Origin: Alphaproteobacteria bacterium RIFCSPHIGHO2_01_FULL_41_14
GTDB taxonomy: Bacteria; Pseudomonadota; Alphaproteobacteria; UBA7879; UBA5542
Direction of reading: 5' to 3'
Assembly (NCBI GenBank): GCA_001767855.1
Contig: MEMF01000002.1
Coordinates: 168,893 to 232,892 of the forward strand
Length of the DNA: 64,000 nucleotides
The notes beneath the pieces were generated by a model. It was not told where the DNA came from and did not search any database. It saw nothing but the letters and a program-made list of their open reading frames with translations. Both the position numbers and the translations under genes were made by a program. Position 1 is the first letter of the stretch. The number at the start of each line of letters is the position of its first letter. Positions 10,811 to 36,309 of the stretch are shown here, one piece after another.

Positions 10811-11244
10811 TGTCTGATTCAGGCTGTATTCAAGAAAATATTCACTACTTTGAAGTCCGTGTGTATTATGAGAATACGGATGCAGGAGGTGTGGTCTACC
10901 ATCCCAATTATCTTAATTTTGCTGAACGTGCACGGACAGAATTATTAAGATACTGTGGAATCTCTCAAGAGGAATTAAAGCGTCTTTATGCTTGTGTGTT
11001 GGTGGTAGCGCAGTTAAATATTAAATATGAAAAAGCAGCTCGTCTAGATGACATTATTCAAGTTCGTACAGTGCTTGAGGGGGAGTCGAAGGCGTTGTTT
11101 GACCTCCATCAATCTCTTTGGGTGGGGGATAAACGGATCGCGGATATGAACGTAAGTGTGGTAGCTGTAGATTCAGAATTATGGCATGTTAAGAGGTTGC
11201 CGGAGGAAGTAATCAGAAAAATAAAGGAAAATTTAAATGGTTGA
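10807..11244 (+). CDS. ybgC: Tol-Pal-associated acyl-CoA thioesterase YbgC (4HBT fold)
   Basis: Begins MMSDSG...[30 protein letters not shown]. Its ATG overlaps the ruvB TGA in an ATGA junction. The 10615 ORF in the track is an upstream over-extension. Confidence 0.8.
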
Positions 11245-11281
11245 TACAAGTTCAGGAAAAGTTTTAGCATCCGGGATAGAG

Positions 11282-11935
11282 ATGACTCAGCATACACACG
11301 GCGTTTGGGATTTGTTTTGGCAAGCGGATCTCTTTGTAAAGTTGATCATGCTGGTTCTTTTGGTTAGCTCTTTTATGAGTTGGGCGATTATTATTTCTAA
11401 AACAAAACAGTTACTCCCTTTGTTGAAGTCCTCAAAATTTTTGGGTCAGTTGATTCATGAGGCCACCACTCTTGGCCATCTTTCAGAGGGAATTAAAAAG
11501 ATGAAAAATGAGCCCCTAAATCGTATTTTTGAAGCCGTTGTTAAAGAAATGAGGCAGGGAGGCTCAAAAGAAGACAAGCTTTCTCAAGCGGATCGATTGA
11601 TGCAATCTGGTATTAGAAATGAGATGGATTCTTTAGAAAGAAACGTCGGATTCTTGGCGACAATGGGATCGGTTACGCCTTTCATTGGGCTTTTGGGGAC
11701 GGTATGGGGGATTATGAATAGCTTTCAATCCATTGCTATGTCTAAGAACACAAGTTTGGACGTGGTGGCTCCTGGCATTGCTGAGGCTTTAGCCGCTACA
11801 GCGTTAGGGCTGTTAGCGGCGATTCCCGCGGTGATTGCCTATAATAAACTTTCCATTTCGTTGGGACACTATGCGGTTCAATTAGAAACTTTTTGTGACC
11901 GTCTTTACATTATCTGTGCGCGAGGAGGTAGGTAA
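11282..11935 (+). CDS. tolQ: Tol-Pal system protein TolQ
   Basis: A MotA/TolQ/ExbB proton-channel protein (WDLFWQADLFVKLIMLVLL...). The start at 11282 (MTQHTHG) is preferred over the track's 11237. Confidence 0.9.
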   Translation: MTQHTHGVWDLFWQADLFVKLIMLVLLVSSFMSWAIIISKTKQLLPLLKSSKFLGQLIHEATTLGHLSEGIKKMKNEPLNRIFEAVVKEMRQGGSKEDKLSQADRLMQSGIRNEMDSLERNVGFLATMGSVTPFIGLLGTVWGIMNSFQSIAMSKNTSLDVVAPGIAEALAATALGLLAAIPAVIAYNKLSISLGHYAVQLETFCDRLYIICARGGR

Positions 11936-12384
11936 TGCAAGGAGGGTTTCGTCCTAGAAGAGCCGGACGCTATCATGGAACCTATCGTCCGGTCAGTGAG
12001 ATTAATGTGACGCCCCTCGTGGACGTTATGTTGGTTTTGCTGATTGTTTTTATGATCTCTGCTCCTTTGTTGACGGTGGGGGTACAAGTGGACTTACCAA
12101 AGACTAAGGCCACCAGCCTTAAAGCCAAAGCGGATCCTCTCGTGTTAACGATTACGGGAAAAAAAGAAGTTTATCTCCAAGAGTCTCCCATTCGACTTGG
12201 CCAACTTATTGTAAGGCTCAATGCCATTACTCGGCGTAATTATGAAGCTCCTGTCTATATCCGGGCCGACCAAAAACTCTCTTATGGACATGTTATGGAA
12301 ATCATGGGCTTGCTTAATGAAGCGGGATATACAAAAGTGTCTCTTGTCTCAAATTCATGGCGCAAGGGCGGTTCCCTTCAATGA
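11935..12384 (+). CDS. tolR: Tol-Pal system protein TolR
   Basis: ExbD/TolR fold (EINVTPLVDVMLVLLIVFM). It joins tolQ through a TAATG overlap. Confidence 0.85.
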   Translation: MQGGFRPRRAGRYHGTYRPVSEINVTPLVDVMLVLLIVFMISAPLLTVGVQVDLPKTKATSLKAKADPLVLTITGKKEVYLQESPIRLGQLIVRLNAITRRNYEAPVYIRADQKLSYGHVMEIMGLLNEAGYTKVSLVSNSWRKGGSLQ

Positions 12385-13220
12385 TTGATCGTCAATCTTT
12401 TTTGATTTCAGGCGGGATCCACCTTTTTTTTATCATTTTGTTACTGATAGGGTTACCCAGCTTTAGGAAAGAGATCTCTCCCACACGTGTGATTGCTGTT
12501 TCCATGGTGCCCATTGATAGCATTACCCAGTCTCCTCAGAAAATGCAAAAAAAAGCCCCGATTCTTAGTGCCTATAAAAAGCCTACGTATAATATGGGAA
12601 AGCCTTTGGTTCAAAAAAAAATGCCTGTAGTGAAACCAGAGCCGGCCAAAAAAATCACGCAACTTACCCCCCTGCCCCCAAAGCCTATTCCATTGAAGAC
12701 ATCAAAGCCAGAATCTGAACCCAAGAAATCTCCTAAAGTCTTAGAAGAAAAACCGAAACCAGTAGAAAAAGAAGTAGCGCAAGCGCCTAAGAAGTCAAGT
12801 GACCCATTTGAATCGGTTTTGCAATCAGTTCAAGAATTTGACAAACAACCAAGTCCGCAAGAAAAAACAATGGATAACAGAGCCTTTGATGCGGATTTAA
12901 TTTCAAACAAAATCAGCTTGTCAGAATTGGATGCCCTGAGGCAACAGATTCAACAATGTTGGCTTGTTCCCCCGACAGTAATGGCGGAAAAAGATTTGAT
13001 GGTAGAGGCGGCCATTGATTTGGACGTACGAGGTACGGTAACAGAGATTAAAATTTTGAACCAGAAAGATGCCAAAAAATTTCGGTCTTTTCAAGAGGCG
13101 GTCCAGAGCGTGCGGCATGCTTTACGGGCGCCAGAGTGCTCCCCTTTAAAGCTGCCTCCAGATAAGTATCACCAATGGAAAAAATGTGTTTTACGATTTA
13201 GCCCAAGAGGAATTGTCTAA
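12381..13220 (+). CDS. tolA: TolA-like cell-envelope integrity protein
   Basis: An N-terminal transmembrane helix, then a Pro/Lys-rich spacer (PLPPKPIPLKTSKPESEPKK), then a TolA_III/TonB_C-like C-terminus. Its ATG overlaps the tolR TGA in an ATGA junction. Confidence 0.65.
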   Translation: MIDRQSFLISGGIHLFFIILLLIGLPSFRKEISPTRVIAVSMVPIDSITQSPQKMQKKAPILSAYKKPTYNMGKPLVQKKMPVVKPEPAKKITQLTPLPPKPIPLKTSKPESEPKKSPKVLEEKPKPVEKEVAQAPKKSSDPFESVLQSVQEFDKQPSPQEKTMDNRAFDADLISNKISLSELDALRQQIQQCWLVPPTVMAEKDLMVEAAIDLDVRGTVTEIKILNQKDAKKFRSFQEAVQSVRHALRAPECSPLKLPPDKYHQWKKCVLRFSPRGIV

Positions 13221-14537
13221 ATGAAAAAAATTCTATTTCTTTTATGGTGTGCCTGGATGCCTCTTCTGTTGTATAGCGAGGTGGTGGTTGATATTGATCA
13301 GGGGCAGGTAAAACCTTTTCCTCTCGCCGTTCTTCCCTTTCAAGGGAACACCAAGATATCAGAGCAAATTCGGTCTGTGGTGATAGAAGATTTAGAGCGA
13401 TCTGGTTTTGTTGAGGTATTGGATCCAAATTCTTACATACAGACCAATCTCGACTTGCAGACGACCCCTAGATTTGAAGATTGGAAACTGATCAACAGTC
13501 GTGGGTTGGTCGTAGGAGAAGTCTTGGAACGTGGAAAAATTCTAACCGTGCGGTTTAAGTTTTGGGATGTGTATGAACAGTCTCTTTCAGTTGAATTTGA
13601 ATTCAAGACAGACATGAAACATTGGAGACGTATTGCTCACCTAACGGCTAATAAAATTTACAAGGTGATTACGGGGGAAGAAGGGTACTTTGATACGCGT
13701 ATTATCTATGTATCAGAAAGGGGGCCACAGAAAAAACGCATCAAACGTCTTGCTATTATGGATCAGGATGGGGCGAATCATAAGTATTTAACCAATGGGG
13801 ACGCTTCTGTTATTACGCCCCGTTTTTCTCCCAATTCTCAGAAAATAGTCTATATGTCGTATGAGACTCACTTAAGACAAGCAAAAGTTCATCAGCTTGA
13901 TTTAGAAACGGGAAAAACGTCTTTGGTGGGAATTTTTGAGGGTATTACCTATGCGCCCCGTTTTTCTCCAGATGGGTCTAAAGTCATTATGAGCCAGGCC
14001 TATAAAGGATCGTCAAGTCTATATGAAGTGGACTTAGCAACACAGAAAGCTAAGCGTCTGACAACTGATGATGTGATTGATACGTCCCCTTGCTACTCTC
14101 CGGATGGGACTGAAATAATTTTCAACTCAGATCGAGGGGGAACAAAACAACTTTATGTGATGAGTTCGACGGGGCAAAATATCCGACGCATTAGCTTTGG
14201 CGGGGGGGTATATGCAACCCCTGTTTGGTCGCCAGATGGAGAATGGATTGCTTTTACAAAAGTAGAAAATGGGCAGTTTTTTATCGGCTTAATGAAGCCA
14301 GATGGTTCAGAGGAACGATTAATCTCCACAGGATTTTTAGTCGAAGGTCCGACGTGGGCTCCCAACAGCCGATTATTAGTCTTTTATAATCAAGAGCGCT
14401 GGGGAAAAAATGGGACAGGTGGAAAAGCCAGTCTTTATACAATTCACGTGAGTGGACGCAACAAAAAAATAATTCAGACACCTGAAGATGCTACAGATCC
14501 TGCTTGGTCTCCACCCCTTCCTTTCGACCAAATTTAA
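13221..14537 (+). CDS. tolB: Tol-Pal system beta-propeller protein TolB
   Basis: Signal peptide, TolB N-terminal domain, and repeated YSPDG/WSPDG beta-propeller blades. The ATG abuts the tolA TAA. Confidence 0.9.
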   Translation: MKKILFLLWCAWMPLLLYSEVVVDIDQGQVKPFPLAVLPFQGNTKISEQIRSVVIEDLERSGFVEVLDPNSYIQTNLDLQTTPRFEDWKLINSRGLVVGEVLERGKILTVRFKFWDVYEQSLSVEFEFKTDMKHWRRIAHLTANKIYKVITGEEGYFDTRIIYVSERGPQKKRIKRLAIMDQDGANHKYLTNGDASVITPRFSPNSQKIVYMSYETHLRQAKVHQLDLETGKTSLVGIFEGITYAPRFSPDGSKVIMSQAYKGSSSLYEVDLATQKAKRLTTDDVIDTSPCYSPDGTEIIFNSDRGGTKQLYVMSSTGQNIRRISFGGGVYATPVWSPDGEWIAFTKVENGQFFIGLMKPDGSEERLISTGFLVEGPTWAPNSRLLVFYNQERWGKNGTGGKASLYTIHVSGRNKKIIQTPEDATDPAWSPPLPFDQI

Positions 14538-14580
14538 ATTCCTGCTTGTCTAAGTTCCAAAATCGTATGATCATAAAATT

Positions 14581-15906
14581 ATGAATGAATTATTTTATAA
14601 ACTTCCTGAGTATTTTATTTACTTTAACGATGAAATATTGTGGGGATATGTTGGCATATCTTTAATATTCTTTTCAATTATTTATTTATCGTTCAAATCC
14701 AGATTTCTTCAAGTTGTTCAGTTTCCAAAAATATTGAGTTATTTTTTTCAGTCATCTAAAGAAACCATCACAGATGAACCAGGCACCTCTTCTTTAAAAG
14801 TTTTTTTCGCTTCTCTTGGGGGATGTATCGGTATTGGAAATTTGGCTACCGTTGCTGTTGCCATAAAAGTAGGCGGACCAGGCGCTCTGTTTTGGGTGTG
14901 TGTTGTATCTTTTTTAGGATCTATTATTAAATATAGTGAAATTTTCCTGGGCCTAAAATTTAGGGTTCGAAACGCCTACAAAGGGTATGATGGTGGTCCC
15001 ATGTACTATTTGCAAAAAGCCTTTCCCACTCAAAGATGGCTTCCGATTCTCTGTTGCATTTTTTTAGGTATCTACGGAGTAGACATTTATATGTTCACCG
15101 TCATCAAAACGTCTTTTGTTGCTAATTTCAATTTAGAAACGACACCCACCATGGTGGTGTTATTGTCTCTTATCATACTCAGTGTTGTGGGGGGTATTCG
15201 ACGTGTGGGGGCTATTGCTATGTTTTTTCTTCCCGCCTTTATGATCGTTTACGCTAGTATGAGTGTTTGGGTTTTTGTTGAAAATTCTGCCATCTTTCCT
15301 GCCATGTTAAAAACAATTTTTATTTCTGCTTTTACCGGTCATGCCGCCATGGGCGGGTTTATGGGCAGCACCGTTCTTCTGACCATGTCTAAGGGAATGT
15401 CCAGTGCGGCGTATGCAAGTGATTTGGGATCAGGTCTCGCCTCTGTTTTGCAAAGCGAAGTATCAAGCCAAGATATTCAAAAACAGGCGAGCCTTTCTGT
15501 TTTTGTGGTCTTTTTAAATACATTTGTTGTGTGTTTGTGTAGCATGTTGTTGGTATTGGTGACAGGAGCCTGGACATCCCCGATTATGGATGGAGGCCTC
15601 TTAATCCAAGAGGCCCTTAATCGTAGTTTTTCTAATATGAACTACTTTATGCCCTTTTTTTTATTTGCTGTAGGATATCCCAGTTTGATTTCGAGTTTAT
15701 TGGTTGGCGTAAAGGCGGCACGATTCATTCACCCTGTGTGGGGGGCCTGCGTATACTATATTTATGCGGTGTGTGTGTTCATTATCTTTTCTTATTTTAA
15801 TTCTTACTACGCTCTGATTTTTTTAATCTTGGCCGGGGGATTCCTAAATGCTATGAATATTTTAGGTATCTTGAAACTGCGAAAACATATCGACTTTACT
15901 TTGTAG
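14581..15906 (+). CDS. alanine/glycine:cation symporter (AGCS family)
   Basis: 441-aa polytopic protein with the AGCS N-terminal signature (GGCIGIGNLATVAVAIKVGGPGALFWV..SFLG). Confidence 0.75.
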   Translation: MNELFYKLPEYFIYFNDEILWGYVGISLIFFSIIYLSFKSRFLQVVQFPKILSYFFQSSKETITDEPGTSSLKVFFASLGGCIGIGNLATVAVAIKVGGPGALFWVCVVSFLGSIIKYSEIFLGLKFRVRNAYKGYDGGPMYYLQKAFPTQRWLPILCCIFLGIYGVDIYMFTVIKTSFVANFNLETTPTMVVLLSLIILSVVGGIRRVGAIAMFFLPAFMIVYASMSVWVFVENSAIFPAMLKTIFISAFTGHAAMGGFMGSTVLLTMSKGMSSAAYASDLGSGLASVLQSEVSSQDIQKQASLSVFVVFLNTFVVCLCSMLLVLVTGAWTSPIMDGGLLIQEALNRSFSNMNYFMPFFLFAVGYPSLISSLLVGVKAARFIHPVWGACVYYIYAVCVFIIFSYFNSYYALIFLILAGGFLNAMNILGILKLRKHIDFTL

Positions 15907-18567: not shown

Positions 18568-21189
18568 TTAAGGGTTCAAGTACCAAGAAAGACCCAGCTT
18601 GAATTCATTATTAATGAGATTAATTTTTTCGGTTACATTGCCATTGCTTTGATCTTTTATTTTCAAGCCAGGTATGTAATCTAAGATGTAATCACTGCGG
18701 AGCGCCAAGTGTCTGGTAATAAAGGTTTCAAGTCCTGCGCCCACCCGTATACCGATTCCGTAAACTTTTTCAGATCCCCCTGCTGTAAAGGAGTGTTGAG
18801 TACCGCTGTGTTGGGAAGAATGAGAAAAACTCCCTCCTATCATGCCTATACGACCATAACCGATAGTCCCGTGGTTGAAAATATACCCAGGGCGCGCTGT
18901 TAGGGCCCATAACCATTGAAGTTTATTCGAGTATGATTCTGTGGTAGTTCCCCCATTGAGAATGGACTCTGAAATGATAGGCTTCGTCAAATCAAGTTGC
19001 AATTCTCCCGCCATAAAAAATTTATCTTGATGGTCGCTATACCCAACAAAGAGACCCCACGCCGGGTCCACTGTTGATCCTTCCCCATCATAGGTAGTGG
19101 TGGCACTAGACCCATTAACCCCCGTTACATTGCGATGATTTACGAAGGTAGAAAGACCACTATCAGCTCCAAAATAGAATCCGGTTCCAACACTTTCTTC
19201 ATAAATGTCTCCCATGGCAGGCCCTGACATGGGATTTAATTTGTATCCTATGCCTAAATTAATTTCATTTAAGAGGGGGCGGTCTTTCTTATAATCTGTA
19301 CCAGATTTATAATAGAAGGGCTGATAAGTCACCTGAGCTCCTTCCACTCGAACGGACAAGCGATCATTTAAAGCAGACTCAAGACCTAAACCATAAAGGA
19401 ATCCTGTTCGATTAGTGCGTTGATAAGAGGTGGGGAAAATAATTTCCCCGGTACCTCCTGAACTACTATAAGAAAAATTAGAGCTGTTAGCGCCAAGGCG
19501 TGCGTATAATAAACTGGATGGGGAGACGTAATATCCAAGACGTCCTATGATTCCCCAAGTGGTTCTTATTTCAGCAGATGAATCTGTGCTTGCTCCAGAA
19601 ACAGTGTAGCTTGTTTTACTGTCAGCCCCATAGATTCCAACATTAAATTCAGCTCCTGCGTAAATTTTGTTAATGTCTATTCCATACCCTGCCAACAAGT
19701 GAATCCCTCCACCAAAGTTGGAAGTGGAAAGATCGTTTGTGAACGTTGAGTAGGTTGAATGAGAAGCTGTTTGCCCTGCTAGCGAGGCAGCTTTAAGACC
19801 AACATAGAATCCGTCCCCAACATTCGTATAAGGAGCAATACCTCCTCGGTAGACAAGGCGGGATACTTCTCCCTCTTCTTTCTCTAAATCATCATAAGAA
19901 AGCTCTGACGCAGAAGCATCAATGAGCCAGGTAGGAGTTTTCTTTTCTTTTTGATTCAGATAAACAACAAACCGACCATTCCCTTTGGTTCCAAAAGATT
20001 TCTTACCAATAACAGAGGTTCCTTTATCAACTTTAAAAATAAGACTCGTATGTTCCGGATCTGTTTGGTCTAGTTTAAATCCTTCTACAAGACCTGCTTT
20101 TTGTTCTGTAACGTTTACGTTATCCCATATCATCTTGGGAAGATGGATGCTGACTTCATTCGTTGTTTTGTTTTCTTGAACATCGAAATTTTTTACCTCA
20201 GTCGTCATGAGGCGAATAATCGTATCGTTATTTTGAACTAAAATATTCATGCTTTTAACAAGGTCATTTTCTGGAAACACAGAAAACGAATCTCCCCGAT
20301 TTAAGAGGGCATTGTTTTGGGTCTTCATAGAGGTATATGTTTCGTTAACTTTGTTCGAATTTGAGATAGTATTGACCGTGGGAACAAAAGATTGATGAGC
20401 CAGATCAATTACTAATTTGGGATCAGGCGTTTTTTCACCGATAATGGATGCTTGAACAATGCGTGTCCCTTTCTGTACAGACACTTCTATGCCCACATCT
20501 TTGTTCATTGTTATCAGTTTATAGCCTTTAAAAAAACCGAAAGATTCAGAAGAAGAGGGGGCCGGCACCCACTGCGTGATTTCTGTGGGAAGAATATAAA
20601 TGGTAGAAAAGTCATCATTTTCTTTGATAATGAATTTTGTTTGGCGACTAAGATCCAGAACAAGTCGTGTGTTTTGATTTTTGAATCCTGCTCGGATCCC
20701 TTTTATGGTCAGAGGTCCATTGACAGGAGCAGGAGATGGATTCATGGGCGCTTCTGCTACAGGATTTTGAGGAATTGGGGCTTCAGGTGGAAGGGGGGGA
20801 TTTTGGGAATCTGGCTGTGCATAAAAAGAAAGACTATATTGATTATGTTGATTTTGCACCAATTTACCTGTCACAAGACGTTTGTCCTTTTTAATGACTA
20901 AATCTCCTGCTCCATCTTGATAGGGTACGTAAGTATAGCTCAACCCAAGGTTTGATTCCTTTGAAAGAGGAGGAGTCCACTGAGTGTCTTCGGGGAATTC
21001 GATGAGAAGAGTTTCATCATCTTCTTGGTCGGGCTCTAGGGAAAAAGCTTCATCAAAGGTAAAAGAAAGGGTGGGGGTCCCTTGGTGGTCAATGATCTTC
21101 ATATCCTGCACAACAAGGGCACATGCTTCTTCTAAATTGGTAAGGAATACCAATAAAAAAGAAAAATATAAAATAGATTTTATTCTCAT
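18568..21189 (-). CDS. large secreted outer-membrane protein: AMIN-like repeat region plus two tandem Omp25/OmpA-like beta-barrel modules
   Basis: Signal peptide (..NLEEACA then LVV) and a Pro-rich linker. There are several repeats of the TRLVLDLS / KLVIDLAH type resembling AMIN domains. The C-terminal half holds two ~215-aa modules, each ending ...LGIGYKLNP and ...LGLSWYLNP, with alternating aromatic beta-strand patterns. Confidence 0.55.
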   Translation of the reverse strand: MRIKSILYFSFLLVFLTNLEEACALVVQDMKIIDHQGTPTLSFTFDEAFSLEPDQEDDETLLIEFPEDTQWTPPLSKESNLGLSYTYVPYQDGAGDLVIKKDKRLVTGKLVQNQHNQYSLSFYAQPDSQNPPLPPEAPIPQNPVAEAPMNPSPAPVNGPLTIKGIRAGFKNQNTRLVLDLSRQTKFIIKENDDFSTIYILPTEITQWVPAPSSSESFGFFKGYKLITMNKDVGIEVSVQKGTRIVQASIIGEKTPDPKLVIDLAHQSFVPTVNTISNSNKVNETYTSMKTQNNALLNRGDSFSVFPENDLVKSMNILVQNNDTIIRLMTTEVKNFDVQENKTTNEVSIHLPKMIWDNVNVTEQKAGLVEGFKLDQTDPEHTSLIFKVDKGTSVIGKKSFGTKGNGRFVVYLNQKEKKTPTWLIDASASELSYDDLEKEEGEVSRLVYRGGIAPYTNVGDGFYVGLKAASLAGQTASHSTYSTFTNDLSTSNFGGGIHLLAGYGIDINKIYAGAEFNVGIYGADSKTSYTVSGASTDSSAEIRTTWGIIGRLGYYVSPSSLLYARLGANSSNFSYSSSGGTGEIIFPTSYQRTNRTGFLYGLGLESALNDRLSVRVEGAQVTYQPFYYKSGTDYKKDRPLLNEINLGIGYKLNPMSGPAMGDIYEESVGTGFYFGADSGLSTFVNHRNVTGVNGSSATTTYDGEGSTVDPAWGLFVGYSDHQDKFFMAGELQLDLTKPIISESILNGGTTTESYSNKLQWLWALTARPGYIFNHGTIGYGRIGMIGGSFSHSSQHSGTQHSFTAGGSEKVYGIGIRVGAGLETFITRHLALRSDYILDYIPGLKIKDQSNGNVTEKINLINNEFKLGLSWYLNP

Positions 21190-24147: not shown

Positions 24148-24236
24148 ATTTTTCTTGTTTATTTCTACTTGGAGGAGGCTATTCAACGTTCCTGTAATTT
24201 TGTAGGGTGACCCCCAAAGTATAACTTGGGGTGAAC

Positions 24237-26030
24237 ATGAATAAGTGGGCTATTTGGGCGTGTATTGGTCTTAGTGCATGTAATTTGGATCAAAAAAAGT
24301 TTCAAGATCCGATCATCGATCGAGCCCACGAAAGTATAAAAACAGCCTTACTCGAACCGACCAATGAAAGACCCCCACAATTAGCTACTGCTCCTTCTTC
24401 TTCAGCAGCGGCTCTGTTGCCAAAAATCCTACAACAAAAAGTTACCATTGAATTGAATGAGTCTAAGGATATTAAAGAAGTTTTTATGGATCTTTGTCGT
24501 GCTGCTAAAATTAATGTAGTGGTAGAAAAGGAAATAGAGGGATCCATTTTTTATCATGCAAAATCTCGTCCTCTGATCGAAGTAGTACAGTCTATTTGCG
24601 AAATCCTTAATTTACGCTTTCGGTATGAGAAAAATTTACTATATATAGAACGAGATGTTCCCTACTTAAAAACATATGATGTTCAGTTTTTGAACATGAG
24701 TCGGGAAACAAAAAACAATGTTTCTATTACCAATAATATTTTGTCTAAATCTTCCACCACGGGGGTGGGGGCAAATGGATCCACCACAGAAATTTCTAGT
24801 CGGGCGGAGAATGATTTTTGGGAAGAGTTAAAACATATTTTGAGGAATCTTTTACAGGTTCCAAAAACCCAATTACTAGACGAAGATTCTGAAAAAATAG
24901 AAGAAAAAAAGATTCTGCCTTTGCAGGGGCAACTTAAGGATTCCCAGACACAAAATGTCCGTGTTCACGAGAAGAAAAAGATCAAACAAAAAGGCCGACC
25001 TTCCTTTGCGATTCATCGTCAAACGGGCCTCATTACTATTTACGGAACTCAAAAAAATCATCATGTCGTAGAACAATTTTTGACCAAGCTAAAAAAGCAA
25101 ATGGGAAGGCAGATTTTGATTGAGGCAAAGATATTAGAGGTGACTTTAAAGGAGGAGTATAAAAGCGGAATTGATTGGCAACGGATTGGGGAATATGGGC
25201 TAGGTAACTATGCGGAAGCCAGTAAAACAAGATTTCAAGGAGACCTCAGTGCCTCTGCTTTGTTTGGTGCCATTGCGCAGAAAACGCCTACAGTGATCAC
25301 AACTCCCGAAACGTCTCAGGTGATTAGTCTGGGGGGTAGGGGGCATTCTTTGTCCGCCATTCTAAATTTTATGGAAACGTTTGGGGTCGTACGTACTCTG
25401 TCTAGCCCGAGACTTACGGTGTTGAATAATCAAACAGCCCTTTTAAAAGTGGCTGAAAATTTCGTGTTTTTTAATGTAACGGGAGAGCGTCAATTTCTAA
25501 ACTCAGACTCTACCAATTATGGTTCTTTGGTGTCCGCCAACAGTTCTCCCCAAACCATTCCCATCGGATTTGTGATGAGTGTCCAACCAGCCATTGATGT
25601 AGAGACACAAGATATTATTATTAATTTAAGGCCAACAATTACACGGTTAATCGATACAAAACAAGATCCAGCCGTTGTGTTGTTAAACCAGTCCCTACAA
25701 AATCCCTCTCATCACGTTAAATCTGAATTCCCCGTCATCGCCGTGCGTGAGATGGATTCTATTTTGAGGATCAAATCAGGCACCGTTGCTATTTTAGGGG
25801 GCTTAATGATCGAGGGGGCAGAGACTGGTCGTGCAGGAATTCCTGGCACGAGTGAAGGGCCTTTTAGTTTTTTTACCTCTGCCAAGCGCCAAGCAAAAGC
25901 AGTCACAGAGCTCGTCATCTTTTTGCGGGCAACAATTTTGGAAGGCGCTCATCCTGATTCCAAAGATCAGCAACTCTATAGGGAGTTTTCTCTAGATTCT
26001 CGTCATTTAAATTGGAAAGAAGCCGCATGA
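24237..26030 (+). CDS. lipoprotein secretin (GspD/PilQ/MshL/BfpB-type outer-membrane channel)
   Basis: Lipobox LSAC. A secretin-domain start (ILIEAKILEVTLKEEYKSGIDW) and secretin C-terminal motifs (GTVAILGGLM...GIPGT...FSFF...ELVIFLRATIL). The RBS GGGGTG precedes ATG 24237, and an alternative GTG lies at 24231. Confidence 0.8.
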   Translation: MNKWAIWACIGLSACNLDQKKFQDPIIDRAHESIKTALLEPTNERPPQLATAPSSSAAALLPKILQQKVTIELNESKDIKEVFMDLCRAAKINVVVEKEIEGSIFYHAKSRPLIEVVQSICEILNLRFRYEKNLLYIERDVPYLKTYDVQFLNMSRETKNNVSITNNILSKSSTTGVGANGSTTEISSRAENDFWEELKHILRNLLQVPKTQLLDEDSEKIEEKKILPLQGQLKDSQTQNVRVHEKKKIKQKGRPSFAIHRQTGLITIYGTQKNHHVVEQFLTKLKKQMGRQILIEAKILEVTLKEEYKSGIDWQRIGEYGLGNYAEASKTRFQGDLSASALFGAIAQKTPTVITTPETSQVISLGGRGHSLSAILNFMETFGVVRTLSSPRLTVLNNQTALLKVAENFVFFNVTGERQFLNSDSTNYGSLVSANSSPQTIPIGFVMSVQPAIDVETQDIIINLRPTITRLIDTKQDPAVVLLNQSLQNPSHHVKSEFPVIAVREMDSILRIKSGTVAILGGLMIEGAETGRAGIPGTSEGPFSFFTSAKRQAKAVTELVIFLRATILEGAHPDSKDQQLYREFSLDSRHLNWKEAA

Positions 26031-26719
26031 AAAAATTAAAAGCTTTTCTGAAAAAGGAGGAGGGGTTCAGTCTTATTGAGATTGCCATTGCTCTTATTGT
26101 GCTGGGGCTCGTTATCGGGGGCGTTTTGAAAGGAAAAGAGCTCATCGAAAATGCAAAATTAAATGTGGTGGCTCGTAATATTGATATGTATCGAATGGCG
26201 ATCCATCTGTTTGTCGATACATATGGTTCTTTACCTGGAGATTTTCATTTAGCATCCGCTCATATTCATCCCAAACTTCGGGATGGACAAAACGATGGTG
26301 TTATTAGTGGTCATGGGTTGAATCCTTTGGATGAAGCGGCGAATGTCTGGACCCATCTAGCCCAAGCTGGGCTGATTGGAGATGTGGGTCAGTTTCCAAG
26401 TTATGAATACGCGAAGGGGGGACAGGGTGTGCCTCAAGAAAAAATTGGGGGAGTGATCACGCTTCAGCATGACCCCCATCCCGACATGTCGGGACACTGG
26501 CTTCTTTTGGGACGCGAGAATGGGTCGAAGGGAGATGGAGCTTTATTGACACCCCAGCAAGCCAGAACATTAGCACAAAAAATGGATAGCGCCGATCCGA
26601 ATTCCGGTCGAGTACGGGGGTATCATGGCGTGAATGTGTCACCAGAAGATTGTATTAAAGAAGGGAAATTTAATAGTGCCAATACCCAGCCAGCCTGTAT
26701 TTTATACTTTCAACTTTAA
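26027..26719 (+). CDS. prepilin-type N-terminal cleavage/methylation domain protein (large pilin/pseudopilin, 230 aa)
   Basis: Class III signal MKKLKAFLKKEEG|FSLIEIAIALIVLGLV, with G at -1, F at +1 and E at +5. Its ATG overlaps the secretin TGA in an ATGA junction. Confidence 0.7.
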   Translation: MKKLKAFLKKEEGFSLIEIAIALIVLGLVIGGVLKGKELIENAKLNVVARNIDMYRMAIHLFVDTYGSLPGDFHLASAHIHPKLRDGQNDGVISGHGLNPLDEAANVWTHLAQAGLIGDVGQFPSYEYAKGGQGVPQEKIGGVITLQHDPHPDMSGHWLLLGRENGSKGDGALLTPQQARTLAQKMDSADPNSGRVRGYHGVNVSPEDCIKEGKFNSANTQPACILYFQL

Positions 26720-26724
26720 GTCTT

Positions 26725-27525
26725 ATGAAACAATTTTTTCGTGACGTTAAAAACGAAGAAGGATTTGCCCTGGTAGAAGTGGCCATTGCCTTAATCGTGA
26801 TGGGAGTTTTATTAGGAATAGGGCTTCCTTCTTTTTTGCAGTATCTTCAATGGCAGAAGATTAGAGACACAAAAGAAAAGCAAGAAAAAATTTTCTATAG
26901 TGTGGCCAGTTTCGTTCTCCAAAATGGGTTTGTGCCTTTACCGGCAGACCCTTATGAAAAAGGAGAAAATTTTGGGATGTCGAGACCCTCTGCCCAAAAG
27001 TCTGAAGATTTGAGAGGTCTTATTCCCTTTAAAACTTTGGGACTCCCTGAAGAGTGTGCTCGTGATGGGTTTAAACACTACTTTACGTACATTGGGGGGG
27101 CGCCCCAAAAAGAACAGATAGATGTGTCAAATCAAGCTTCTTTTTGCCAAGTCTTCCCCATCCATTCTTTGGAGGTGGACGAGCGACGCCCCAATGGGGG
27201 ATTTTCGAAGAGACCACAAAATCTGGCATCTCAAAATCCCATAGTTCTGATCATCATCAGTCATGGGGAAAGTGGGCACGGGGCCTATTACGGTGTTGCG
27301 GGAAGTATGAAACAAATCTCAAGATTAGATCAAGCGGGCGCAGACAAACGGCATAACGCATCATCAAGCTTAAGAATTATTAGTCGCGCTTTGTCTCGAA
27401 AGCCTCAAGACTTTTTTGATGACATGGTTGTGTGGGTAACCCGCGACAACTTAATGGCCTTTTATGGGAAGTCCCCTTGTCAGGTCTATGAGAAACCAAC
27501 AGAGTATGGACATGTCTTTATTTGA
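26725..27525 (+). CDS. prepilin-type N-terminal cleavage/methylation domain protein (large pilin/pseudopilin, 266 aa)
   Basis: Class III signal MKQFFRDVKNEEG|FALVEVAIALIVMGVLLG. It starts 5 nt after the first pilin. Confidence 0.7.
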   Translation: MKQFFRDVKNEEGFALVEVAIALIVMGVLLGIGLPSFLQYLQWQKIRDTKEKQEKIFYSVASFVLQNGFVPLPADPYEKGENFGMSRPSAQKSEDLRGLIPFKTLGLPEECARDGFKHYFTYIGGAPQKEQIDVSNQASFCQVFPIHSLEVDERRPNGGFSKRPQNLASQNPIVLIIISHGESGHGAYYGVAGSMKQISRLDQAGADKRHNASSSLRIISRALSRKPQDFFDDMVVWVTRDNLMAFYGKSPCQVYEKPTEYGHVFI

Positions 27526-35199: not shown

Positions 35200-36309
35200 T
35201 CAAGAGCGAGTTTTAAAGCAAGAGTCTATGGCCTCAACAATGCCCGCACAAATGGCTTCTTGGTGAGAAGGACTTGTTAGCAAAAGGGCCTCTTTTGGAT
35301 TGGATAGATAACCCAGTTCAATCAGAATAGAGGGAAGATCTGCCGATTTCAGAATAAAAAAGTCTGCAAATCGATGGGGTTTGCGTAATAAGAAAACGCG
35401 ATCTCTTAATTTACTCATCAAGCATTGGGCAAATTTTATGGAGAGGTTCATTGTTTCCCGCTTAGTCAAATCAATAAGAATATTGGCAACCTCAGGAAGT
35501 TCAGACTGTAAGTCGATCCCCATAATTAAATCAGCTTTATTTTCTTTTTTTGCAAGATGCTCTGCTTGTTTGTCAGACGCCACAGTGGAGAGGGTGTAAA
35601 CAGACAGACCGCGCGTGTCGCTTCCATCACAACTGTCTGCATGCAAAGAAATAAACAAGTCTCCTTTGGCAGCACGGGCATTTCTGAGTCGTTGGGCCAA
35701 TGTCATAGACGTGTCGGCTGTGCGTAGGAGAACAGTTGTATACCGTCCTGTTTCGTTCAGTTTCTGACTTAATCGTTTGGCAACGGCTAAAGTCACGTCT
35801 TTTTCATGGATTTTTCTGATACCAGTAGTGCCTGGATCTTTTCCTCCATGGCCCGCATCAATAATAATTTTCTTTTTTTGAATGGGTTGTTGTTTTGTGG
35901 TAGGGGAGGCTTGTGGCTGTGATATGGCCGTTATTTCTTTTAAGTCGATCACGTAACGATAAGAAAGGTGGCTGTTGTTGGGAGGAATCCAAAAAGTGTT
36001 ATGAACTATAAAATCTTTCCTAAAATGGAAGAAAAAAACCGTTTTTAGATTTTGTGGCTCCTTTTTTATAAATCGGATGTAATTCGATTGGTTTTTGATC
36101 GTGAAAGGGGCAGATGGCGCAGAATTAAGGGTTACAGAGAGCGTGCGGAGATCGAGTTTATAGGAAACATCTTCCTGTTCCGAGACGTCAAAGACAATCC
36201 GAATAGCTTTTTCAGTGTGGTCTGCTGTGCGAACACTCAATAGAGAAGAATAGCTGCCAAGCGTCGGTAAAAAAATAAAAATCAAGAATATGAGTCGAAA
36301 AAGGGTCAT
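35200..36309 (-). CDS. amiC: N-acetylmuramoyl-L-alanine amidase (Amidase_3, AmiC-like, with N-terminal AMIN domain)
   Basis: Signal peptide, an AMIN-like N-terminal region, and a catalytic region (IIIDAGHGGKDPG...SLHADS). Confidence 0.85.
   Translation of the reverse strand: MTLFRLIFLIFIFLPTLGSYSSLLSVRTADHTEKAIRIVFDVSEQEDVSYKLDLRTLSVTLNSAPSAPFTIKNQSNYIRFIKKEPQNLKTVFFFHFRKDFIVHNTFWIPPNNSHLSYRYVIDLKEITAISQPQASPTTKQQPIQKKKIIIDAGHGGKDPGTTGIRKIHEKDVTLAVAKRLSQKLNETGRYTTVLLRTADTSMTLAQRLRNARAAKGDLFISLHADSCDGSDTRGLSVYTLSTVASDKQAEHLAKKENKADLIMGIDLQSELPEVANILIDLTKRETMNLSIKFAQCLMSKLRDRVFLLRKPHRFADFFILKSADLPSILIELGYLSNPKEALLLTSPSHQEAICAGIVEAIDSCFKTRS

Follow-up and report, generated by a model that had tools for sequence, protein, structure and literature searches.

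A Holosporaceae protein that joins three AMIN-type domains to two predicted 8-stranded barrels, a candidate non-covalent tether between the outer membrane and peptidoglycan

Several outer-membrane proteins carry a barrel anchor and a periplasmic wall-binding domain on one chain. OmpA of Escherichia coli and the OmpM/SLH-porins (Veillonella OmpM1, 8bys) are built in this way. In an alphaproteobacterial group without Braun's lipoprotein (Lpp), the Omp25/Omp31 barrels serve as wall tethers. These are single 8-stranded barrels of the OMP_b-brl type, and their mature N-terminus is attached covalently by L,D-transpeptidases. In this group, the Rhizobiales, barrels of the Omp25/Omp31 family are reportedly linked covalently to peptidoglycan (Godessart et al. 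2021). The protein described here is encoded in a 64,000-nucleotide stretch of DNA, hereafter the window, from Alphaproteobacteria bacterium RIFCSPHIGHO2_01_FULL_41_14 (assembly GCA_001767855.1, contig MEMF01000002.1, positions 168,893 to 232,892 of the forward strand). It is the product of the open reading frame (ORF) at 18568..21189 and is predicted to join three AMIN-type domains to two 8-stranded barrels.

Multibarrel proteins were catalogued by Solan, Pereira, Lupas, Kolodny and Ben-Tal (PNAS 2021; PMC8346858), who predicted 12,643 of them in 34 architectures and 186 families. The commonest theme is poly-8, or 8-8, and the linkers between barrels have a median length of 22+/-13 residues. 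The YjbH-GfcD multibarrels of that paper carry a peptidoglycan-binding domain in the middle of the chain. At the time of its publication no multibarrel structure had been solved, and the handling of such chains by the barrel assembly machinery (BAM) was flagged as an open question. The preliminary description of this gene had called a double barrel in one chain rare in any case, which is overstated against a count of that size. AMIN domains are known from other proteins. Those of AmiC and PilQ are peptidoglycan binders that direct their proteins to the septal and polar wall (PMC10653833; bioRxiv 10.64898/2026.07.30.741596).

The gene stands in the ORF list as it had been described, with an ATG start and 873 codons.

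18568..21189, minus strand: the whole ORF, 873 aa plus the stop codon at 18568-18570 (ORF list)

NCBI lists the identical protein, annotated only as 'hypothetical protein', from groundwater metagenome-assembled genomes (MAGs), namely Alphaproteobacteria bacterium GWB1_45_5 and its sisters. A word-indexed search returned 13 proteins at 41-99% identity, 11 of them full length, and all 13 homologues come from Holosporaceae or unclassified alphaproteobacterial MAGs. Taken as a whole, the protein is probably, with real reserve, a non-covalent outer membrane-peptidoglycan staple composed of a double-barrel anchor and a tri-AMIN wall tether. The anchor is formed by the C-terminal half.

19231..19812, minus strand: barrel 1, residues 460-653, ending ...LGIGYKLNP, with eight predicted transmembrane strands and a Pfam OMP_b-brl match
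18571..19182, minus strand: barrel 2, residues 670-873, ending ...LGLSWYLNP, with eight predicted transmembrane strands and homology to barrel 1

Pfam OMP_b-brl (PF13505, gathering cutoff 28.7 bits) matches the whole protein in two stretches at 52.5 bits. Residues 460-650 and 690-869 cover positions 21-174 and 23-173 of the 175 in the model, so that full-length, non-overlapping barrel matches joined by a linker are present, as in a two-module 8-8 multibarrel. Scanned separately, module 1 (residues 440-655) scores 46.4 bits with OMP_b-brl and 22.3 bits with OmpA_membrane, and module 2 (residues 656-873) scores 23.6 bits with OMP_b-brl, which is sub-threshold. In the whole-protein scan OmpA_membrane reaches its cutoff, and NCBIfam gives a generic barrel domain only, also sub-threshold. 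Homology between the two modules is supported by BLASTP (25% identity, E=6e-11) and by hhalign (probability 98.8%, E=1.3e-16). OMP_b-brl matches 12 of the 13 family members. The two tandem Omp25/OmpA-type barrels of the preliminary description are thus borne out by the profiles, by the homology between modules and by the 8+8-strand model described below. The assignments that it had named as contrary to them (autotransporter, TonB receptor or soluble fold) did not appear, and no Pfam or NCBIfam profile for a large single barrel (autotransporter, TonB receptor, porin) matched at E<=1. Reading the N-terminal half as an autotransporter passenger was ruled out, as no autotransporter profile matched and a barrel of eight strands lacks a translocation pore.

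A full-length AlphaFold2 model was made from the 13-sequence family alignment. Its mean predicted local distance difference test score (pLDDT) is 68, with domains at 75-90 and linkers below 50. The model has eight strands in residues 460-650 and eight in 670-870. Periplasmic turns are 2-4 residues long, the outer hairpins are long, and the predicted strands, at 22-25 residues, reach well past a bilayer. Barrel topology was judged from superposition statistics. The transmembrane domain of OmpA (9fzc_A) superposes with a template-modelling score (TMt) of 0.76 over 203 columns, a fit to one of the two barrels, the statistics not showing which. Ail superposes at TMt 0.50. Barrels of 14-16 strands reach about 0.25, and FadL, porins and NanC 0.24-0.31. 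FadL, porins, NanC, EspP and AlgE align over 420-500 columns at TMt 0.20-0.31 and a root-mean-square deviation (rmsd) of 14-20 A, and EspP, EstA, FadL, BtuB and porins gave TMt 0.15-0.30 and rmsd 15-20 A. A high value for OmpA and low values for wide barrels are as expected of two closed 8-stranded barrels and not of one wide barrel. No PDB entry up to April 2026 matches both barrels of the model.

The predicted strands have the dyad pattern of a membrane barrel. Lipid-facing positions are hydrophobic, and lumen-facing positions are 29% Gly with conserved Glu, Arg, Lys and Asp. The lumen-facing positions are also better conserved than the lipid-facing ones (0.88 vs 0.73, p=1e-7), and barrel 2 has a conserved Gly-rich lumen face. 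A Gly-rich, conserved lumen is as expected of filled small barrels. The short turns and alternating faces of a closed 8-stranded barrel are present in the prediction, and the C-terminal half very probably forms two separate closed barrels (8+8) rather than one of 16 strands.

The 16 strands might instead close as one barrel, a porin-like or Omp85/FhaC-like channel that would be anchored by the AMIN arm and plugged by the segment at residues 413-459, which precedes the barrels, is conserved and contains a helix. According to Solan et al., who cite Arnold et al. (PMC8346858), engineered tandem 8-stranded barrels can merge into one barrel of double size. Covariation was examined by mean-field direct coupling analysis (DCA) of 76 tandem relatives (effective number of sequences, Neff, 68). 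Neither topology received a closure signal from it, and the closure of strands 1-8 or 9-16 has no support there; its strand-ladder scores placed the pairing of strands 8-9 at the 95th percentile. This test is underpowered and carries little weight, with about 5 of 14 hairpin controls recovered. Against a single barrel, the model superposes on the OmpA barrel and not on 12-18-stranded barrels, and each module spans the whole 8-stranded Pfam model (about 20-175 of 175). The connection between the modules is disordered, conserved and, at 16-19 residues, too long for a periplasmic turn when the others have 2-4. The highly conserved Gly-rich lumen and the occurrence of single-barrel relatives also speak for small barrels. 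A single 16-stranded barrel is therefore held to be quite unlikely, and the double barrel is retained as the anchor.

The N-terminal half consists of three domains of about 100 aa.

20818..21117, minus strand: D1, first AMIN-like beta-sandwich repeat, residues 25-124, with eight strands at pLDDT 84-91
20395..20712, minus strand: D2, second AMIN-like repeat, residues 160-265, with the motifs TRLVLDL and PKLVIDL and eight strands at pLDDT 79-88
19954..20259, minus strand: D3, third AMIN-like repeat, residues 311-412, at pLDDT 82-91

These domains are mutually homologous, and the several short AMIN-like repeats that had been noticed here are their conserved strands. The quoted motifs are present, with TRLVLDLS at residues 174-181, KLVIDLAH at 258-265 and SLIFKVDKG at 382-390, as are the two barrel ends, LGIGYKLNP at 645-653 and LGLSWYLNP at 865-873. 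D2 and D3 align end to end over 101 columns with the 13-sequence family alignment (hhalign E=1.3e-5). With profiles enriched with more distant relatives, hhalign gives 99.9% for D2 and D3, 98.4% for D1 and D2 (E=1e-14, 97 columns) and 97.8% for D1 and D3 (E=7e-13). A separate structure model of residues 25-445 has eight strands per domain and disordered linkers between the domains, one of them with a helix. Each domain is modelled as the AMIN fold, a sandwich of about 100 residues made of two four-stranded sheets.

Pfam AMIN (PF11741, gathering cutoff 20.5 bits) matches 9 of the 13 family members at E<0.1, with 1.5e-5 as the best value. Two relatives with the same repeats exceed the cutoff, P0021 (21.4 bits) and P0104 (23.1 bits). 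D1 scanned alone gave no Pfam match, and D1 and D3 are tied to AMIN through their homology to D2 only. At a probability of at least 0.99, the Foldseek matches in the PDB are solved AMIN domains only. They include the tri-AMIN N-terminus of Myxococcus PilQ (3jc8_Qa, 407/421 columns, probability 0.99), the B2 domain of Neisseria PilQ (4aqz and 4av2, probability 1.00; 4av2 at rmsd 3.0 over 103 columns) and E. coli AmiC (4bin). Because the family-level Pfam matches and the structural matches agree, D1-D3 are, as modelled, diverged AMIN domains in an array that resembles that of PilQ, and the AMIN-like repeats of the preliminary description stand at the level of the family. A search with the whole protein against PDB sequences gave only a spurious Pro-rich match to LRRC8C. 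Pfam found no OmpA_C-like (PF00691) peptidoglycan-binding domain in the protein.

An AMIN domain had also been ascribed to the AmiC-like gene at 35.2 kb of the window. This gene, at 35200-36309 on the minus strand, encodes an Amidase_3 protein with an N-terminal domain of about 130 residues, which has no Pfam AMIN match at E<0.05. D1-D3 show no significant similarity to that N-terminus, a comparison that is uninformative as the N-terminus itself misses Pfam AMIN.

The protein begins with a signal peptide, and its domains are joined by linkers of unequal conservation.

21118..21189, minus strand: signal peptide, residues 1-24, read by eye, with a predicted signal peptidase I site after ACA
20713..20817, minus strand: Pro-rich flexible spacer, residues 125-159, at pLDDT below 50 and of varying length among homologues
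20260..20394, minus strand: linker 2, residues 266-310, with a predicted helix at 278-296 (model) and a conservation of 0.45
19813..19953, minus strand: juxta-barrel segment, residues 413-459 (TPTWLIDASASELSYDDLEKEEGEVS...YRGGIxPY), recognised from conservation and the model
19183..19230, minus strand: inter-barrel linker, residues 654-669 (MSGPAMGDIYEESVGT), disordered in the model and conserved

The signal peptide, which had been called cleavable, has the n-h-c layout when read by eye (MRIK / SILYFSFLLVFLTNL / EEACA), and residues 2-18 are helical in the AlphaFold2 model. A lipoprotein reading was rejected by eye, as LEEAC-A misfits the lipobox [LVI][ASTVI][GAS]C and most homologues lack the Cys. 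The proline-rich linker of the preliminary description is present at residues 131-155 (PPLPPEAPIPQNPVAEAPMNPSPAP). It lies in the spacer at 125-159, the least conserved region, with an identity of 0.29 among the 11 full-length members, to which the identities below also refer. Segment 413-459 has an identity of 0.77, above any folded N-terminal domain, and residues P419, W421, L422, D434, G449, G450 and Y454 are invariant. Its pLDDT is below 50 except for a short acidic helix at 432-442. The segment looks less like a spacer than like an element for docking or assembly, perhaps an unrecognised interaction or assembly motif. The inter-barrel linker is 16-19 residues long, inside the 22+/-13 range of multibarrel linkers, with pLDDT below 50 at 656-665 and an identity of 0.75 for 651-669.

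The protein would be exported by Sec and integrated in the outer membrane, where the C-terminal half would form two tightly packed OmpA/Omp25-type barrels side by side. Both ends of each barrel would be periplasmic, and the conserved 16-residue periplasmic linker would join the barrels. Since the two termini of an even-stranded barrel lie in the periplasm, the tri-AMIN arm would be periplasmic as well. The N-terminal half would be a flexible arm of three AMIN-type domains, with linkers of 35-47 residues. By analogy with the AMIN domains of AmiC and PilQ, this arm may bind peptidoglycan non-covalently, and the protein would therefore staple the outer membrane to peptidoglycan. Two small barrels would give a broad membrane anchor, and three flexibly linked wall-binding modules would give reach and avidity. 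Given the preference of AMIN domains for septal and polar wall, the tether may be concentrated at division sites or poles. The architecture is secure apart from the predicted 8+8 closure; wall binding, tethering and position in the cell are assigned by analogy.

Several points weigh against a staple of this kind. The window protein itself scores 14.6 bits with Pfam AMIN (E=0.037, 25 residues of D2), below the cutoff, and the N-terminal profile gave no match among PDB sequences. Wall binding by AMIN domains this diverged is putative. The closure of two barrels depends on one AlphaFold2 model of 13 sequences with a predicted template-modelling score (pTM) of 0.45, and covariation gave it no signal. 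The best-conserved N-terminal segment is the 'linker' at 413-459 and not an AMIN domain, which hints at another or an additional interaction. The last point comes from CP060261.1, the complete 1.02-Mb chromosome of Holosporaceae bacterium HK-STAS-PROT-86. The orthologue there extends over three frames (L007 3001-5471), with pieces corresponding to residues 29-57, 67-727 and 730-873, and this accounts for the truncated 606-aa call P0012. With two frameshifts in this copy, which may mark a recent pseudogene, the gene may be dispensable in that genome; alternatively, they are sequencing errors, indels of the assembly.

An exhaustive profile search returned 1,494 proteins at E<=1e-3, 20 of them at E<=1e-30, and the five domain profiles were mapped onto the best 150 of the 1,494. 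Among these 150, the core family with the order D1-D2-D3-B1-B2 (B1 and B2 being the two barrels) is P0001-P0017. Diverged proteins of 783-981 aa (P0021-P0025) have the same domain order, and P0027 and P0028 are D3-B1-B2 forms. The single-barrel homologues that the preliminary description had proposed to look for were found, both as stand-alone barrels and as a repeat with a single barrel (P0084, P0098, P0104). The best 150 also hold many plain 8-8 tandems and BBP2_2 + 8 + 8 proteins of about 850 aa. When the N-terminal alignment was used for a word-indexed profile search, the only match was one fragment of the same family. Some 17 clusters, all from Holosporaceae and alphaproteobacterial MAGs, retain the full architecture, down to about 41% identity, and this retention is read as selection. 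Across 89 unrelated tandems there is a slight excess (55 vs 34, p=0.03) of those in which the first barrel leans towards B1 and the second towards B2, which is weak evidence that the tandem may be older than the tri-AMIN 8-8 family.

Barrel-less secreted proteins of 370-470 aa (P0111, P0092, P0029 and similar) carry two or three AMIN-like repeats with Pro-rich linkers and long acidic or Pro-rich disordered tails. For P0111 (L010 5001-6335), a barrel-less D2-D3 protein, a split-gene ('Rosetta stone') arrangement was considered and rejected, as the 477-aa ORF downstream is not a barrel.

Conservation differs between the parts of the protein. Identity is 0.62-0.69 in the AMIN repeats, 0.59-0.86 in the barrel strands and 0.36-0.66 in the predicted outer loops. 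The Holosporaceae are typically host-associated, and the outer hairpins bear on a second explanation, in which the surface role is foremost. The long hairpins of Opa/Ail/OmpX-like barrels would then act as an adhesin, invasin or immunodominant antigen towards a eukaryotic host, and the AMIN arm would only position or stabilise them. Homologues are named 'outer membrane immunogenic protein' and 'opacity protein-like surface antigen' in their sources, although these are COG/Pfam labels of a generic kind. Ail matches in structure, the strands extend beyond the bilayer, and a gain in avidity has been proposed for poly-8 adhesins (Solan et al., PMC8346858). The outer loops, however, are only moderately variable, and several long hairpins are highly conserved (0.86 for b4 of B2), unlike those of diversifying antigens. 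Three conserved periplasmic domains also argue for the arm as central to function. A protein that works mainly at the cell surface is thus considered rather unlikely, and a wall tether is still preferred.

The gene is divergent from polA, across an intergenic gap of 237 bp in the window, and tyrS lies 58 bp downstream. A promoter and terminator scan gave sites at the frequency expected by chance, with a weak -35/-10 pair about 100 nt upstream and no terminator before tyrS. The order secretin-polA-gene-tyrS-permeases-tolB is retained in a genome whose homologue has 52% identity. There, a 303-aa ORF without a Pfam match lies between polA and the homologue (L003 4983-5894, L004 862-1773). Around the 42%-identity homologue (P0011) the neighbours are LysR, a leucine-rich repeat (LRR) protein, ileS and lspA, and around the diverged relative P0021 they are smpB and a lytic transglycosylase (SLT) gene. 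The latter (L008 9362-11266) lies about 600 bp downstream, past smpB, which may be coincidence. A conserved operon was rejected, as neighbours are syntenic among close relatives only. The gene is a stand-alone gene without a conserved operon partner, as expected of a structural outer-membrane protein.

The secretin gene of the window, at 24231-26030, matches PF00263 and Secretin_N_2; its product starts with MNMNKWAIWACIGLSAC and is possibly a lipoprotein. It has no Pfam AMIN match at E<=0.001. After it, within 24231-27525, come two ORFs whose N-termini carry methylation (pilin/pseudopilin) motifs.

The Tol genes of the window lie in the region 11237-15906, with tolQ at 11237-11935, tolR at 11935-12384 and tolB at 13221-14537. 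The position of tolA is occupied by a 287-aa ORF without a Pfam match (12357-13220), and a Na/Ala symporter, not pal, comes after tolB. A tblastn search found no OmpA_C-like domain anywhere in the 64 kb, with Pal and OmpA_C queries that were approximate. These genes bear on a third explanation, a division-specific tether that replaces Pal in the Tol system. Its AMIN domains would capture septal peptidoglycan, and its barrels would pull the outer membrane inward at constriction. The absence of pal after tolB (11237-14537) and of an OmpA_C-like domain from the window is suggestive but weak as a hint of such a substitution. The gene lies 4 kb from tolB both in the window and in the syntenic 52%-identity genome, and AMIN targets septal or polar wall in AmiC and PilQ. 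Nonetheless, 64 kb were covered and pal may sit elsewhere in the genome, the Pal and OmpA queries were approximate, and the contexts of P0011 and P0021 do not retain the proximity to tolB. A substitute for Pal is judged unlikely, and the general staple remains the preferred account.

A more far-reaching version of the staple can be formulated, and it is speculative enough to be thought improbable. The protein would be the main outer membrane-wall tether of a Holosporaceae clade that has no Lpp and perhaps no canonical Pal by tolB. It would have two barrels, the first inserted through the internal beta-signal-like ...GYKLNP, its AMIN domains would sit at septa or poles, and segment 413-459 would dock a partner such as TolB or BAM. 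If this version is true, it would be a new solution to envelope stapling and a natural substrate for studying the assembly of multibarrel chains by BAM. The practical value of the protein is modest. Its hosts, Holosporaceae from groundwater or associated with a host, are uncultured, and each part is well known by itself.

Among known systems, the 8-8 multibarrels of Solan et al. share with the window protein two full-length 8-stranded OMP_b-brl/OmpA-type modules, a short linker (16-19 residues here), a lineage-restricted distribution and an unsolved structure. The window protein differs by its additional periplasmic tri-AMIN arm of about 435 residues, and AMIN is absent from the main text of that paper. 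The BBP2_2 + 8 + 8 proteins (the '18-8-8' family of Solan et al., e.g. P0041 and P0051) have a similar length of about 850 aa, and their C-terminal 400 residues or so are collinear with both barrels (profile 456-854, one stretch), but they begin with a third, large barrel (PF10082) in place of soluble AMIN domains.

The PilQ secretins (Myxococcus xanthus with three AMIN domains; Neisseria B2) have an AMIN array with flexible linkers before the outer-membrane part and are the best structural match. The membrane part of PilQ, however, is a multimeric secretin, and sequence identity is 8-14%. The window protein is not itself set in a pilus-machine context; the secretin gene of the window (24231-26030) is separate. 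In the cyanobacterial AMIN-TonB-dependent transporters (CctA; bioRxiv 10.64898/2026.07.30.741596), too, AMIN follows the signal peptide and precedes an outer-membrane barrel at the C-terminus. The CctA type has one AMIN domain and a 22-stranded plugged barrel and is reported in cyanobacteria only, whereas here three AMIN domains precede two 8-stranded barrels in Holosporaceae.

The transmembrane domain of OmpA is the best fold match to a barrel of the window protein, and OmpM has its wall-binding domain at the N-terminus, in the same order as here. In both, the wall binder is OmpA_C or SLH instead of AMIN and there is one barrel each, and in OmpA the order is opposite. Compared with the covalent Omp25/Omp31 tethers, attachment here would be non-covalent, through the AMIN domains.

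No description of three AMIN domains combined with an 8-8 multibarrel was found in the searchable literature. What is new is this combination and its restriction to a Holosporaceae clade; the parts, and fusions of wall binders with barrels, were already known. The family is compact and strongly conserved, with clean domain boundaries. It extends the partners of AMIN, so far amidases, secretins and cyanobacterial TonB transporters, to small OmpA/Omp25-type barrels, and it joins two topics, multibarrel proteins and the attachment of the outer membrane to the wall in alphaproteobacteria without Braun's lipoprotein.

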